The translations under genes and the position numbers were made by a program. Positions 1-34,440 of a stretch of DNA of 34,489 nt are shown piece by piece. How positions within the stretch are numbered: the first letter of the stretch is position 1; the number at the start of each line of letters is the position of its first letter. Under the pieces are notes generated by a model. That model saw only the letters and a list, made by a program, of their open reading frames with translations. It was not told the DNA's origin and did not search any database. This DNA comes from Candidatus Micrarchaeia archaeon (GTDB lineage: Archaea; Micrarchaeota; Micrarchaeia; Norongarragalinales; UBA8480), in assembly GCA_039794045.1 (NCBI GenBank), contig JBAMLY010000008.1, forward strand, positions 1 through 34,489, written 5' to 3'.

Positions 1-51
1 GCGTCACTAATTATTGAGCGCGGGGGTGCCAGAGCCTGGAAAATGGGCAGG

Positions 52-85
52 AAAACCTTGTCCAACGCGGACGGGGTTTTGCCAA
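52..85 (+). other. 34-nt BHB intron, tRNA-Leu position 30/31
   Basis: Helix GGCA/TGCC with bulges GG|A and AA|G; intron hairpin AAACCTTGTCC...GGACGGGGTTT. Confidence 0.88.
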
Positions 86-124
86 GCTTAGAACCCTGTG
101 GCTTAGCGCCTACGAGAGTTCAAA

Positions 125-170
125 ACCAGCTTCTTTTCTTTCAAAGAAAGAAAAAAGAGGTTGGGGAAAA
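125..170 (+). other. 46-nt T-loop intron (59/60), tRNA-Leu; intron family A
   Basis: Interrupts TTCAAA|T; hairpin CCAGCTTCTTTTCTTTC...GAAAGAAAAAAGAGGTTGG; boundary may shift 1 nt within the A-run. Confidence 0.85.
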
Positions 171-220
171 TCTCTCCCCCCGCACTACTTCCTCGTATTA
201 GAGCATTTTGCTTTCTCGCC

Positions 221-6658: not shown

Positions 6659-7450
6659 CCTATTTTGAGATAAGTTGTGTTACACGCGACTGACTTCTCT
6701 TTGTGACGTCGCGTCGTTCTTGCCGCAACGCGTTTTACAGTCGTTTAGGGCATTCCAGCCTTTACAGTGCGCGCGCTTTGAGAAGCCTTTGCGGGTTTCT
6801 TGCAGTGCGCGGGCGTTGACGGCGTCGTGATAATCCGAGGAGACTTCAACAGGCGCTTTTGCGTCGATGACGTTCGTTTCGGGTTTGATGCAGAAGACCT
6901 TGGGAGCAAAAAAGCTGAGAGTTAGTTCTTGCGGCCCTCTACGGCCACGCGCTATCGCGCGTGAGCCTCACACCAGTCGATCCTGCTGGAGGGCACTGCT
7001 ATCGGATTGCGACTAAGACATGCAAGTTTTAAGACCGGGCTTCCGGTCTTGGCGTACGGCTGAGTAACACGTAGTCAACATACCCTAGAGATTCGAATAA
7101 CTTCGAGAAATTGAAGCGAATTCGTTATAGGCAAGGATTTCTGGAAGGAAGCCTTGCTGAAAAGGAGCCTGAATTGCAGGGAGTTCCGCTCTAGGATTGG
7201 ACTGCGTCTGATTAGGCTGTTGGCGGGGTAACGGCCCACCAAACCAATAATCAGTAGGGGCTATGGGAGTAGTAGCCTCCAGAAGGGCACTGAGACAAGG
7301 GCCCTAGCCCTATGGGGTGCAGCAGTTACGAAACTTCCGCAATGCGCGAAAGCGTGACGGGGGTAGTCCGAGTGGCATTCGAAAGAATGCCTTTTGGCCA
7401 GTCCGAATAACTGGCAGAATAAGTGGTGGGTAAAGCCTGTGCCAGCCGCC

Positions 7451-7482
7451 AGCGGCAACAACTCACGAGTTGTCGCCGGTAA
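7451..7482 (+). other. 32-nt BHB intron in 16S 530 loop (about E. coli 526/527)
   Basis: Splits GTGCCAGCCGCC|GCGGTAATAC; helix GCCG/CGGT, bulges CC|A and AA|G, hairpin GCGGCAAC...GTTGTCGC. Confidence 0.9.
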
Positions 7483-7653
7483 GCGGTAATACAGGTAGCA
7501 CGAGTGGTGTCCGCGAATATTGAGCCTAAAGCGCCCGTAGCCGGTTCGGCAAATTTCCTGTGAAATCTTCCAGCTTAACTGGGAGGCTTGCAGGAAACAC
7601 TACCGGGCTTGGGAGTGGGGGAGGTCAGGGGTACGTCAGGGGGAGCGGTTAAA

Positions 7654-7692
7654 TCACGCGCGTAGCGCGACTTGTTGCGCGCGTTGTAACAA
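7654..7692 (+). other. 39-nt BHB intron in 16S 690 loop (about 696/697)
   Basis: Splits GCGGTTAAA|TGCTTTAATCC; helix GTTA/TAAC, bulges AA|T and AA|T. Confidence 0.88.
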
Positions 7693-7774
7693 TGCTTTAA
7701 TCCTTGACGGACCACCAGTGGCGAAGGCGCCTGACCAAAACACGTCCGACGGTGAGGGACGAAGGCCAGGGGAG

Positions 7775-7806
<32 letters not shown>

Positions 7807-7888
7807 AGTAAATGATGCAGACTAGACGTTGCACTTGCTTCGAGCAAGTGCAGTGCCGTAGCGAAGGCGATTAGTCTGCCGCTTGGGG

Positions 7889-7931
<43 letters not shown>

Positions 7932-8073
7932 TACCACAAGCCGTGGATGCTGCGGTTCAATTGGATTCAACGCCGGGAAACTCACCAGGAAAGACGGCAG
8001 GATGAAGCTCAGGCTGAAGACCTTAGCCAACAAGCCGAGAAGTGTTGCATGGCCAGCGTCAGCTCGTGCCGTG

Positions 8074-8172
8074 AAAGAGCAGCTTCCTCGAATGAAGGAA
8101 AGCTTTCCAACCGCGTTAAACGCGCGGGCGTTGCTTTCAGACGAGAGTTGAATGGGAGCTGTTTTTCGGTAC
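8074..8172 (+). other. 99-nt BHB intron in 16S (about 1079/1080)
   Basis: Splits CAGCTCGTGCCGTG|AGGTGTCAGGTTAAGTCC; helix GCCG/CGGT, bulges TG|A and AC|A, long stem AAGAGCAGCTTCC/GGGAGCTGTTTTT. Confidence 0.9.
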
Positions 8173-8820
8173 AGGTGTCAGGTTAAGTCCTGCAACGAGC
8201 GAGATCCCCGTTCACAGTTGCCATCTTTGAAGTGATTCAAAGAGCACTCTGTGAAGACTGCTTGCGTTAAGCTAGAGGAAGGAGGGGGCGACGCTAGGTC
8301 AGTATGGCCCGAATTTCCTGGGCCACACGTGGCATACAATGGCGGAGACAATGGGTTCCGACGCCGAAAGGCGAAGGCAATCTCAGAAACTCCGCCTCAG
8401 TTCGGATTGGGCGCTGAAACTCGTGCCCATGAAGCTGGAATGGCTAGTAATCGCGTGTCATCATCGCGCGGTGAATATGTCCATGCTCCTTGCACACACC
8501 GCCCGTCAAGCCATCCAAGCGAGGCTTTAATGAGGCTCGGACTTAGGTTCGAGTCGAGCTAAAGCTTTGTGAGGAGGGTTAAGTCGTAACAAGGTAACCG
8601 TAGGGGAACCTGCGGTTAGATCACCTCCAATTGGTCGAAAGCGCGAACGCAGAAGTTCTGTTCTCGCGCGAAACTAGAACTAATTCGGAGAATTCCAGGA
8701 ATCAATTCCGCCTGGAAGCGCTAAAGCATCGAGCTTGCCTCGATGATTTGCAATTTCCTTGGTCTTCTGCAAAAAAACTTTTGTGGGCTCGTGGCGCAGT
8801 GGTAGCGCGCCTGCTTTGCA

Positions 8821-8903
8821 AGCAACCCTTTTCTTCGTCGCTTCGCCTTCGGGGTTCAGTTCCTCGAAAAGCGTTGACGGAAAAAGAGAATGGTTGCCGG
8901 GAA
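8821..8903 (+). other. 83-nt canonical intron of tRNA-Ala; intron family B
   Basis: BHB with helix TTTG/CGGG and closing stem GCAACC/GGTTGC; near-identical to the tRNA-Glu intron. Confidence 0.9.
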
Positions 8904-8925
8904 AGCAGGAGGTCGCGGGTTCAAA

Positions 8926-9004
8926 AGCCATGCCTCTTTTCTTTTCGTAGGAGAAAAGACGCTGGGCGTGGCGCAGAGAAAACGCCGCGCCTGACAGCGG
9001 AGTA
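8926..9004 (+). other. 79-nt T-loop intron (59/60) of tRNA-Ala
   Basis: Removal restores TTCAAAT; contains hairpin GCCATGCC...GGGCGTGGC; boundary +/-1 nt. Confidence 0.8.
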
Positions 9005-9326
9005 TCCCGTCGAGTCCATTTTTTCGTGCAGGGCAACGCATTCGATTGCGTGTCTTGCTAACGCAACCGTTTCTTTGGTTGCGCCGCTCGCGAGTAAGTC
9101 CCCTTGATTGAGAGGGGCTTTGTAGAGCGCAGTGCGGAACGACTGCCTCGGGCTTTCAAGCCAGGAGGCTTTGCTTGAAGTGAAGCGCGACAGTGTTTGC
9201 GTTGGAGCGTGGAACGACAAGCAAAAAAGTCGGGTATGAAGCTTTTACAGGAAAGGAGTCTAACGGAAGATCACGTGCATGGAAGCCGCGAAAGCGGTTG
9301 CCGTGTAATGGTCTTTTGGGAAAAAA

Positions 9327-12277
9327 GTGCTACTAGTTAGTGCCGTACAGTGGATGGTTGGGCTCGGAAAACGATGAAAGGCGTGGCAAGCTGCGAAAAG
9401 CCAAGGGTAGGAGCAGGCGTCCTTTGATCCTTGGATTCCTGAATTGCTCGGAGACGAGTGAAGACCGGCGGAATTGAAATATCTTAGTACGCCGAGGAAG
9501 AGAAACCAACCGGGATTCCGTGAGTAAGGCGACTGAAAGCGGAGTAGAGCAAACCGAATGCCTCTGCGCAAGCAGGGGACGAATGTGGTGTTTGGACCTC
9601 CTTTTAGCACCGGAAATGCATTGTCTGAAGTGAGCTGGAATGCTCCGTCTTAGAAAGTGAAAGCCTTGTAGGACTAGCGTTTTCGGGCGTGGAGAGTTCC
9701 AGAGTAAGGCAGCCTTGCATGGCTGCAAGAACGTGGGAGGATTAACTTCCAACTCTAAACATATTTCGAGACCGATAGCGTAAATGAGTACCGTGAGGGA
9801 AAACTGAAAAGCACCCCGACAGGGGAGTTAAAAGTGCCTGAAACTGTGCGGCTACAGTGAGACGTGGCGTGAAAGGAATGTAGCGCGCGAAAGCGCGCCA
9901 AACAGCGTTGCGTCGTACTTCTTGAAGCAAGGGCCAGGGAGTTCAAGGGAGTGGCGAGCATTAAGCAAAGCGAAAGCGATTCCGCGCAACCGCGCAAGCG
10001 GCGAGGCGGGGCGTCTTAACGGGCGCCGAGTCACTGTCTTGAGACCCGAAGCCGAAGCGATCTATGCGTGAGCAGGATGAAGCCGCTCTTCCGAGTGGTG
10101 GAGGTCCGCAACCGATTCTGGTCTAACCGACCGGGTGACTCACGTATAGGGATGAAAGTTCATTCGAGCTCGGCATTAGCGGGTTCCCTCCGAAGTGTCT
10201 CCCAGGACAGCCTCGCTGGAGGCAGACTCTAGGTAGAGCCACCGATTAGGGGGCATGGGGAGTAAAATCCTCACCTTCTCGTCGAACTCCGAAGCTAGAG
10301 TCGCCGTAGAAGGCGGGAGTTGGGATGTACGAGGTAAGCGCGTACTCCGTGAGGGGAAAGACCCCTACTGCGGTTAAGGCCCCAAAGAAGTGGCTAAGTG
10401 GAAAGTCAAGACGTCTTGGTTCTCAGACAGCTGGGAGGTAGGCTTAGAAGCAGCCATCCTTTAAACAACGCGTAACAGCGGACCAGTCAAGTTCTGGGGC
10501 GTCGCAAACTATCGGGCCTAAGCCACTCGCCGATACCGTGGAACTGCAGTTGAACTGCAGATTTGGTAGGAGGGTGTACTGACTGAGTGGAAGGAGGTTC
10601 GCGAGAACCTCTGGATCGGTTAGTAACAAATATCCTGGTGCTAGTAGCATCTATTCCAGGCGAGAATCCTGGACGCCGGAAGGGCAAGGGTTTCTTGGCA
10701 ACGCTAGAAACCAACTTTTCTTTTGAGAAAAGAAGAAAGAGAGAAGAGGGTTGGCGAGTCGGCCAAGAGTAAGTCGGTCCTAAGGCTAAACGTAACCGTG
10801 ATGCCGAAAGGGAAACACGTTAACAATCGTGTACCTCGTTGGGGCGCGCGGCAACGCAAGTTCAAGTCAGACGCCTGTGGATAAGCCGAGCGGCTGCGAA
10901 GCCGTTCAACAAAGATAGCGCGAGGAAGTCTCGTTGTGAGGAGCACTCGCACAAATTTGGAGTAGCCCGCAAGGGTTCGGCTGATTCCGTGGGCCCGTGA
11001 AAATGGCTTGGAAAGCTTTCAACGAGTCCGTACCAAGAACCAGTACAGGTGCCCCTAGCAGAGAAAGCTAAGGCGTGGCAGGAAAACCGAAGCAAGGGAA
11101 CTCGGCAAGTTAGTCCCGTAAGTTAGCAAGAAGGGATGCCTACACTTCTTCCAAGATTACATCAAGGAGGACTTGTAGGTCTCAGTAACAAGGGGACGTC
11201 GACTGTTTACCAAAAACACAGGTTTCAGCAAGGTGGAAACGCTGAGTACTGAAGCCGACGCCTGCTCACCAGCAGTATCTGAAGCTGGGGTTCAACTCAG
11301 TCAAGGACTGCTAAGGAGCGGGAGTAACTCTGACTCTCTTAAGGTAGCGTAGTACCTCGCCGCTTAATTGGCGGCTTGCATGAATGGCGTAACGAGCGTC
11401 CCACTGTCCCTGCTTTGGACCTGGCGAACCTACTACACGGTGAACATGCCGTGGACTCCGAGTGGGAAACGAAGACCCCATAGACCTTAACAACAGTCTG
11501 TAGTTGCGTCGCGGTTGGTGATGCAAAGCGTAAGCAGGAGCCGTTAAGTCCGCTCTTTCGGGGGCGGGATAGGCGAAAGTGTGACACTGCTCTTCTTCGA
11601 CTACGTCGCTTACCCTAAAGGGACAGCTGCAGATGGGTTGTTCGACTGGGGCGGTACGCCTTCGATAACGAAACAAAGGCGCCCAAAGCTCAACTCAAGA
11701 GCGTCAGAAACGCTTTGTAGAGGGTTAAACACAAATGTTGGGCTGACTGTGTCCTTAACAAAATGGGATGCAGACGCGAAAGCGGGGGTTAACGAACAAT
11801 AGTGTGCCTCTTGATGGGGCCCTATTCTGACAGACAAGGTACCTTGGGGGTAACAGGCTCGTCGCGTGCGAGAGTTCATATCGACCACGCGGTTTGGTAC
11901 ATCGCTATCGGCTCGGGACATCCTGGTGGTGCAGGAGCCACCAAGGGTTGGGTTGTTCATCCATTAAAGTCCCACGTTAGTTGGGTTCAAAACGTCGCGA
12001 GACAGTTTGGTGGCATCTACTCGGAGTGTTTGGCTGGCTGAGGGTAAGGTTTCCTAAGTACGAGAGGAACGGGAAATCGGCGCCTCTAGTTAAGCTGTTG
12101 TGTCAACGCAGGCAGCATAGCCACGCGCCAAGGGATAAGTCCTGAAAGCATCTCAAGGACGAAGCCCCTCCTAAAACGAGCCAGCTTAGGACGCCCGTAG
12201 CAGACGGGTTTGATAGGGCAGGAGTGTAAACCAAGAGCGCAAGCGATTGGCGAGCTAACTGCTACTAAAGTCCGCAC
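9327..12277 (+). rRNA. rrl: 23S rRNA (archaeal) with one intron
   Basis: GTGGATGG..GGCTCGG 5' region, AGTACCGTGAGGGAAA, GTPase centre GGCTTAGAAGCAGCCA, TAAGGTAGCG, PTC loop, sarcin-ricin loop AGTACGAGAGGAAC; ends approximate. Confidence 0.96.
10708..10758 (+). other. 51-nt BHB intron in 23S (about E. coli 1328/1329); resembles family A
   Basis: Splits GGCAACGCTAG|TCGGCCAAGAG; helix CGCT/GGCG, bulges AG|A and AG|T, closing stem AACC/GGTT. Confidence 0.85.
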
Positions 12278-12523
12278 CCAAAAAACACTGCCATCGCTCC
12301 CCAGAGCGCGCGAGCGCGTTGAAGGGAAGAGAACTGAAAATAGTGTTTTTTTGGGGTAACACTTTTTCACCCAAAAAGCAACACCATTTAGCACGTCAAG
12401 AAATGACTCCGTTCCTTTCCAGTAAAAGCGTGCAAACGCGCGCTGCGCTCGCAGTTTCTTCAATGCCGAGCGGCAAGCATATTTTAAAAACGAAGCGCCC
12501 AAAAATTATTTGGGTGGCGCTCA

Positions 12524-34085: not shown

Positions 34086-34153
34086 GAAAAAACCAAGGAA
34101 AACGCCACTTAAAATACGTTCACGTAAAAAAAAGCAAGGCGGGCCCACTGGGA

Positions 34154-34201
34154 CTTTCCTCACCAACCTCCTTTTCTTTCTTTCAAAGAAAGGAAGCTGG
34201 T
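34154..34201 (-). other. 48-nt T-loop intron of tRNA-Arg; family A
   Basis: 28 of the first 30 nt identical to the tRNA-Leu T-loop intron; shared GAGGTTGG. Confidence 0.88.
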
Positions 34202-34223
34202 TTTGAACCCAGGACCTTCTGCT

Positions 34224-34251
34224 TTCCCCGCAAAACCGTTAACGGCTCGCT
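34224..34251 (-). other. 28-nt canonical intron of tRNA-Arg
   Basis: BHB helix CTTC/GGGG; hairpin GCCGTTAACGGT. Confidence 0.85.
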
Positions 34252-34270
34252 TAGAAGGCAGCTGCGCTAT

Positions 34271-34308
34271 TTGCCCAACCCTCTCCCTCGCTTGAAGGAA
34301 AAAGGCCG
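34271..34308 (-). other. 38-nt D-loop intron (19/20) of tRNA-Arg
   Basis: Helix GTCT/GGGC, bulges GG|C and AA|A; removal restores A20, the Arg identity element. Confidence 0.85.
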
Positions 34309-34440
34309 CCAGACTGCGCTATGGGCCCACTCAACAAAATTATTTGTCGAAACAACGTTATTTAGGGTTTCGCCTTGCCACGCAAAAAAAACAAGAAAAC
34401 ACACTGTTTTATACCCGCACGCGAAAAACCTTACTTGCAA

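Follow-up and report, generated by a model that had tools for sequence, protein, structure and literature searches.

The 23S rRNA gene on contig JBAMLY010000008.1 of a Candidatus Micrarchaeia archaeon (assembly GCA_039794045.1) contains a 51-nucleotide (nt) insert, which we propose, with a probability of about 0.7, to be a small non-coding intron, spliced by EndA and RtcB and drawn from a family of pyrimidine/purine hairpin modules that supplies both tRNA and rRNA introns in this archaeal order, rather than a recent copy from a tRNA intron family of the same genome. The window, i.e., the whole stretch of DNA analyzed, is this contig at its full length of 34,489 nt; it is contig C8 of the host genome, G000, which comprises 655 kb in 16 contigs and is rated 92% complete. 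Genomes of relatives are referred to by labels (G003, G007, G011, G013, G021, G036, G040, and G052). The 23S insert site was readable in 39 relatives of the same order, and the wider genome searches covered 61 genomes. Sequence comparison strongly supports the sharing of intron sequence between tRNA and rRNA genes in those relatives whose 23S gene has an intron at this very site.

The archaeal large-subunit (LSU) rRNA model of Rfam aligns cleanly to the gene except in a single domain III hairpin loop, where 53 bases face 2 model positions; we take this hairpin to be helix 52 in the E. coli numbering. Because AG is repeated at both ends of the insert, its boundaries may shift by 1–2 nt. The gene, the insert, and the parts of the proposed bulge-helix-bulge (BHB) motif, as seen in the minimum free energy (MFE) and centroid folds, are located as follows.

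9332..12287, + strand: 23S rRNA gene, host of the insert (Rfam RF02540, 2379 bits, full length)
10708..10758, + strand: 51-nt insert, read as a BHB-type intron (Rfam LSU alignment; relatives read CGCTAG directly followed by TCG at the site)
10702..10705, + strand: exon strand of the central 4-bp helix H, CGCT (pairs with 10753–10756 in the MFE and centroid folds)
10706..10708, + strand: 5′ three-base bulge AGA (GAA in the MFE fold), with the predicted cut after G10707
10709..10712, + strand: 5′ strand of the intron helix h′, AACC (complementary to GGTT at 10749–10752; the MFE fold pairs ACC with GGT)
10715..10724, + strand: pyrimidine tract CTTTTCTTTT, paired with part of the purine tract in the folds
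10725..10748, + strand: purine run of 24 nt, which exceeds the pyrimidine arm and offers it two alternative partners (read directly and from the folds)
10753..10756, + strand: intron strand of helix H, GGCG, in the folds (AGCG or GGCG in the same-site introns of relatives)
10757..10759, + strand: 3′ bulge AGT within a larger internal loop in the folds, a relaxed motif, with the predicted cut after G10758

The original prediction, which derived this insert and two tRNA introns of the window from a common ancestor moved between RNA classes, proposed a check for relatives that lack it, and such relatives were readily found. The insert is absent from 34 of the 39 (26 judged by sequence and 8 by adjacent BLAST pieces), and many of them read CGCTAGTCG at this point. 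Five relatives carry an insert at the identical point (104 nt in G007, 99 nt in G013, 109 nt in G021, about 178 nt in G036, and about 124 nt in G040), and G003, from the same genus as G007, has none. The 3′ tails of the same-site inserts are complementary to the exon CGCT, reading GGCG or AGCG, with GGCA in G036 and G040. All four same-site introns of the hairpin type retain an exon-facing tail that can pair with the exon (GGCG, AGCG, AGCG, GGCG), as well as the 3-nt 5′ bulge, while the intron helix varies by paired substitutions (AACC/GGTT, GACC/GGTT, AGC/GCT, GAC/GTC). Judged from these sequences, the insert is an intron-like element and not a lineage-wide expansion. A 16-letter junction pattern, which is too short, gave only chance matches in bacteria over the genome contigs, and two longer junction patterns gave no match over the metagenome contigs. 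Other 23S sites of relatives (in genes of G001, G032, G007, and G028) hold inserts of 100–745 nt that are absent from G000; the four examined are complex sequence, not hairpin modules.

The fold of the insert region has an energy of −36.4 kcal/mol (z −3.0, matched by 1 of 200 shuffles); no clean mirror repeat was seen by eye in the purine tract of the insert. In the canonical BHB the cut falls after the second bulge base, and the predicted cut positions were taken from this rule; they join CGCTAG to TCGG, which is the loop that many relatives have. The claim that the GGCG end of the insert pairs with the exon CGCT to form a BHB held for the pairing, as a predicted fold, with a motif of relaxed form: of the two-bulge motif, the 4-bp helix CGCU:GGCG and a 3-nt 5′ bulge are present, and the 3′ bulge lies inside a larger internal loop.

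In the precursor, the insert would fold as a pyrimidine-tract/purine-tract hairpin whose foot, together with the flanking exon, would form a relaxed BHB composed of helix H (CGCU:GGCG), the 5′ bulge AGA, the intron helix h′ (AACC:GGUU), and the 3′ side AGU. The single long EndA would cut after G10707 and G10758, and RtcB would join the exons into the loop CGCUAGUCG of intron-less relatives. Both proteins are encoded in G000, namely, one long EndA, a 472-amino-acid frame on C11 with PF01974 (74.6 bits; a Pfam scan of the frame agrees) and two N-domain PF02778 stretches, and the ligase RtcB (PF01139, 579 bits). From the modeled motif we infer that the insert is spliced in vivo. Hairpin modules in this archaeal order would make up introns of rRNA genes and, at several positions, of tRNA genes, and would also sit at gene ends; the likeness of the 23S insert to T-loop tRNA introns of its own genome would reflect a common pool of modules and not a recent direct copy.

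The 23S intron of G007 matches a 110-nt D-loop intron of tRNA-Glu(TTC) (BLAST; E 7e-19, 82% over 97 nt), and the two adopt the same nested rod fold. Two nulls were used for this and the following alignments, i.e., dinucleotide shuffles and shuffles that keep every purine/pyrimidine position; the score of the G007 pair is 62 (z 13 and z 8), a value that none of 2000 shuffles attains with either null. After removal of the D-loop intron in silico, aragorn calls tRNA-Glu(TTC). The first 46 nt of the G007 23S intron also match T-loop introns of G003, G007, and G011, at 87–91%.

A wider distribution was observed for the 23S intron of G021, which has 39 matches at E ≤ 0.001, the best at 91–93% over 89 nt. 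At least 10 copies at 84–93% identity are found in tRNAs, 16S, 23S, gene ends, and the RtcB reading frame. Eleven tRNA genes hold matches, in the T-loop, the D-loop, or the anticodon region (two genes confirmed by Rfam, the others judged by eye). Further matches lie in two other 23S regions and one site of the 16S gene (all confirmed by Rfam), once in the RtcB frame, in eight places after open reading frames (ORFs), and in four places of unclear context. In five of the eight places after ORFs, a long open frame ends at most 10 nt from the copy. Given these copies right after stop codons, the likeness is no less well explained by a common stock of hairpin repeats than by introns moving directly from tRNA to rRNA genes. 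The hairpin form itself (pyrimidine tract, short loop, purine tract) is seen in G000, and the tRNA-intron, rRNA-intron, and after-gene contexts are all seen for this one high-identity family of G021. In the G013 intron, a 37-nt module has at least 15 occurrences at 92–97% (14 besides the intron itself, among 20 matches listed).

The RtcB homologue of G021 (L245, G021:C30:2750-3250) is interrupted twice. One interruption, of 51 nt with an in-frame stop, lies between MPDGHEG and (Y)GFPIGGV; it carries the hairpin module found in the tRNA and rRNA introns of G021, and its junctions show a clean 4-bp helix flanked by 3-nt bulges. The other, of 35 nt, causes a frameshift between GGVGY and DINCGVR. 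By their sequences, both are candidate protein-spliced introns in an mRNA, situated in the gene of the ligase itself.

Two families of T-loop introns are present in the tRNA genes of G000, namely, family A in five tRNAs (about 90% identical to each other) and family B in two. From the five family-A introns only, a covariance model (R1) was built. Scanning for T-loop introns gave 422 rows at first, most of them false, and 57 after filtering; 14 of the 57 were accepted by eye as T-loop hairpin introns, and the alignment scores below cover 13 introns of G000 chosen in this way. Two of the genes with family-A introns lie in the window.

20..184, + strand: tRNA-Leu(TAG) gene with a family-A T-loop (59/60) intron at 125–170, 46 nt, which splits A59/T60 (R1 62.8 bits)
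34140..34328, − strand: tRNA-Arg(TCT) gene with a family-A T-loop intron at 34154–34201, 48 nt (R1 61.1 bits)

The three sequences on which the original prediction was based, i.e., the 23S insert and the T-loop introns of these two tRNA genes, were found where it placed them, and the 5′ and 3′ motifs it described are present in all three (lengths of 46, 48, and 51 nt). The insert has the family-A terminal motifs AACCARCTT and GAGGTTGG, with one additional G in the 3′ motif. A search of the 655-kb genome for AACCARCTT...GAGG(N)TTGG gave six matches, five in tRNA T-loops and one in the 23S insert, against 0 for the reversed control, a count that is circular because the pattern was derived from both partners. 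With R1 the members score 48.8–71.7 bits. The 23S insert, at 29.9 bits, is outside this range (E 5.8e-4 genome-wide; rank 6, the best non-member). Nearly all lower-scoring matches are hairpins of pyrimidine and purine tracts that lie within tRNA genes or next to them. Aligned locally to family A, the insert scores 21.5, a value reached by 10 of 2000 dinucleotide shuffles. Alignment scores between the groups are as follows.

Within family A: 31–47
Family A against family B (two tRNAs): 18–26
23S intron against family A: 16–22
23S intron against family B: 19–22
23S intron against other T-loop introns of G000: 11–16

These scores place the 23S intron beside family A, not inside it, at a distance from family A like that between families A and B. 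Member-level matches to family A are confined to G000 among the 61 genomes. The middle of the insert is of low complexity, as had been cautioned from the start, and its likeness to family A, only modestly above chance in these alignments, is real but weak. One more element, G000:C15:51237-51291 (− strand), has AACCAGCTTCCTT, identical to bases 1–13 of family A, at its start and GGAATTGG at its end; its middle is GC-rich, and it has no obvious tRNA context.

As to the families found in relatives, the G000 intron aligns to the same-site intron of G007 with a score of 19, reached by 14 of 2000 and 33 of 2000 shuffles under the two nulls, and its folds resemble the G007 rod minus its inner part. 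Of the first 29 bases of the G000 intron, 28 are identical to the start of the 37/38 intron of tRNA-Gly(CCC) from G011; the two sequences have the same orientation, and the match lies at the 5′ end of the intron (score 24.5, reached by 0 of 2000 shuffles). Scores of the G000 introns against the G021 module were not significant, being reached by 14 to 86 of 1000 shuffles. We infer kinship of the G000 copy with the G007 and G021 families, for which the sequence alignments give weak support. The idea of a single composite unit, with family A as one half and the 23S intron as the other, is a guess.

The common pool of hairpin modules has to be weighed against three other explanations. The 23S intron and the family-A introns of G000 could have a single ancestor, an intron transferred directly between the 23S gene and a tRNA gene. 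The segments AAACCA(A/G)CTT and GAGG(G)TTGG are indeed common to both and in register with the splice junctions, the family-A copy on C6 has an AACCAAC identical to that of the 23S intron (the alignment with this copy is reached by 11 of 1000 purine/pyrimidine-preserving shuffles), and the insert is the top non-member of R1. However, its score is below that of every member and practically tied with those of the hairpins that follow it (29.7, 29.4, 27.6, 27.0, 26.6, and 25.0 bits). Moreover, blastn-short of the insert against its own genome gave no family-A match at E ≤ 10 and no paralogue, and the insert is equally near family B (the score of the C11 copy is reached by 1 of 1000 shuffles). Family A appears young, as it is about 90% self-identical and occurs at member level only in G000 among the 61 genomes, whereas a related intron already stands at the same 23S site in another genus. 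A direct transfer is highly improbable; of the original prediction, the sharing of intron sequence across RNA classes is strongly supported in G007 and G021, and a specific common ancestor with family A is not borne out by these comparisons. Somewhat easier to entertain, yet still unlikely, is that unrelated inserts have come to look alike by convergence or chance, since BHB introns need hairpins and this lineage favors pyrimidine/purine tracts. The core is of low complexity, the conserved ends are mutually complementary and hence one signal rather than two, 62 of 2000 purine/pyrimidine-preserving shuffles reach the score of 21.5 (p ~0.03), and many hairpins score 25–30 bits with R1. Against such an explanation stand the identity over 89–97 nt in G007 and G021, which includes non-tract segments and, for G007, is matched in score by none of 2000 shuffles, the 28 of 29 aligned bases common to the G000 intron and the start of the G011 tRNA-Gly intron, and the three inserts in the 16S gene of the same operon, which lack such hairpins.

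Finally, the insert could stay in the mature 23S rRNA as a small hairpin expansion. It merely extends an existing hairpin, the 3′ half of its motif is non-canonical, the sequencing-run search gave only a DNA run for this organism, and eukaryotes presumably have an expansion segment in the corresponding helix. The lineage stability of an expansion segment is, however, not observed, as presence is sporadic even within one genus (G007 with the insert, G003 without it); four genomes preserve the 4-bp exon helix and the 3-nt 5′ bulge despite changes in the intron helix; and the paralogues of the same-site introns sit in tRNA D- and T-loops and, with an in-frame stop, in the RtcB frame, where removal is needed for gene function. 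Retention in the mature rRNA seems very improbable. A spliced intron from the module pool is the reading we prefer, and several results count against it in turn. Besides the tied R1 scores, the 62 shuffles, and the blastn-short result, these are the low complexity of the insert and its BHB, which is relaxed because the 3′ bulge sits in a larger loop with AA opposite AGUCG. In the sequencing-run search the whole stretch was matched only in a DNA run, probably the source of the assembly, and the RNA contigs aligned to it come from other organisms and skip the insert region, where an intron-less gene and a spliced RNA are indistinguishable. The shuffle count for the G011 match overstates its significance because the match came from searching 61 genomes; a match in G052 is antisense to the neighboring tRNA; and the score of the G000 23S intron against the G021 module is not significant (71 of 1000 shuffles reach it). 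The tRNA contexts of the G021 copies were judged mostly by eye, and the same-site intron of G040 has no paralogue in five genomes of its genus.

Small archaeal rRNA introns without ORFs were reportedly described by Kjems and Garrett in 1991. Archaeal protein-spliced introns are known to be copied between tRNA genes. What is added here is one sequence family that supplies both tRNA and rRNA introns and that, in a relative, is found in a protein-coding gene and at gene ends as well, which points to a repeat element from which these introns are made. The literature that we searched contained no description of intron sequences common to archaeal tRNA and rRNA genes or of this hairpin module family. 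More tentatively, at somewhat less than even odds, hairpin repeats may spread through these genomes, with copies becoming spliced introns wherever the flanks form a BHB, in tRNA, 16S and 23S, and protein genes (including RtcB of G021); the 23S intron and its T-loop look-alikes would then be products of one intron-generating repeat. If true, such a repeat would be a concrete source for archaeal introns, and intron gain could be tested in genomes whose copies are still 84–93% identical. In practical terms, such inserts hide tRNA genes from standard finders and lengthen the rRNA genes used for classification. Thus, aragorn without its intron option reports 21 tRNA genes in G000, none of them an intron-bearing gene of the window; with the option, tRNA-Glu is found.

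The rRNA operon of the window comprises the 16S gene at 6970–8629 and the 23S gene at 9332–12287; an RNase P RNA and intron-bearing tRNA genes are also present. Compared with the Rfam model, the 16S gene has three inserts of 33, 40, and 100 nt in conserved regions (about 7451–7482, 7653–7692, and 8074–8173). They are GC-richer and not pyrimidine/purine hairpins like the 23S insert, and hence the hairpin character is not general to inserts of G000. The 16S–23S spacer contains a tRNA gene (about 8785–9018) with a long T-loop insert that includes a CTCTTTTCTTTTC/GGAGAAAAGA hairpin; Rfam gives only a weak partial tRNA match here. Elsewhere in G000, hairpins of the same type lie directly 3′ of tRNA genes (G000:C13:6900-6938 and G000:C6:22339-22380), as trailers and not introns. 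At G000:C10:8621-8760 and L074 (G052:C6:73950-74400), a complete tRNA (Thr and Pro, respectively) precedes a pyrimidine/purine hairpin, after which the T-loop-3′ and acceptor-3′ part of that tRNA appears again. This arrangement may have been left behind by an integration event or by the gain or loss of an intron.

The latter two loci are reminiscent of the model of intron gain by integration of mobile elements, in which tRNA introns are linked with duplicated tRNA fragments and mobile DNA (Sugahara et al., 2012; in the part of PMC3293823 considered here): both show a tRNA, a hairpin, and a second copy of the tRNA 3′ part. Unlike in that model, the repeats are only 35–110 nt long, and no integrase or plasmid remnant was noticed, none having been searched for. 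Further similarities are seen with Candidatus Micrarchaeum acidiphilum ARMAN-2, for which non-canonical tRNA introns and a three-unit epsilon-2 EndA of broad specificity are described (Fujishima et al., 2011; PMC3239211, in excerpt). Both organisms have T-loop introns at 59/60, relaxed motifs, and one long EndA; the EndA of G000 is likened to that of ARMAN-2 by its 472-amino-acid length and additional N-terminal domain stretches. The excerpted ARMAN-2 account mentions neither rRNA introns nor shared intron sequences, unlike the case of G000.

The 23S insert also resembles the small ORF-less rRNA introns of other archaea, which are BHB-flanked, as predicted in relaxed form for the insert, and likewise sporadic, located in conserved rRNA regions, and devoid of a reading frame (Jay and Inskeep, 2015; PMC4496867, in excerpt). 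Those introns, as far as that excerpt goes, are from Crenarchaeota and Aigarchaeota, whereas the present one is from a DPANN-type genome, lies in a domain III hairpin loop, and belongs to a repeat module probably common with tRNA introns. The closest parallel to family A, with its five tRNAs and about 90% identity, is the transposition of tRNA introns in Thermoproteales, where similar short BHB introns occupy different genes and positions of one genome and the requirement for a BHB limits where transposed introns persist (Fujishima et al., 2010, as summarized in PMC4090602 and PMC3239211). In those summaries the Thermoproteales introns are confined to tRNA genes; in the genomes studied here, in contrast, related sequences are found in 23S and 16S genes as well and, in G021, also within a protein-coding frame and after ORFs.

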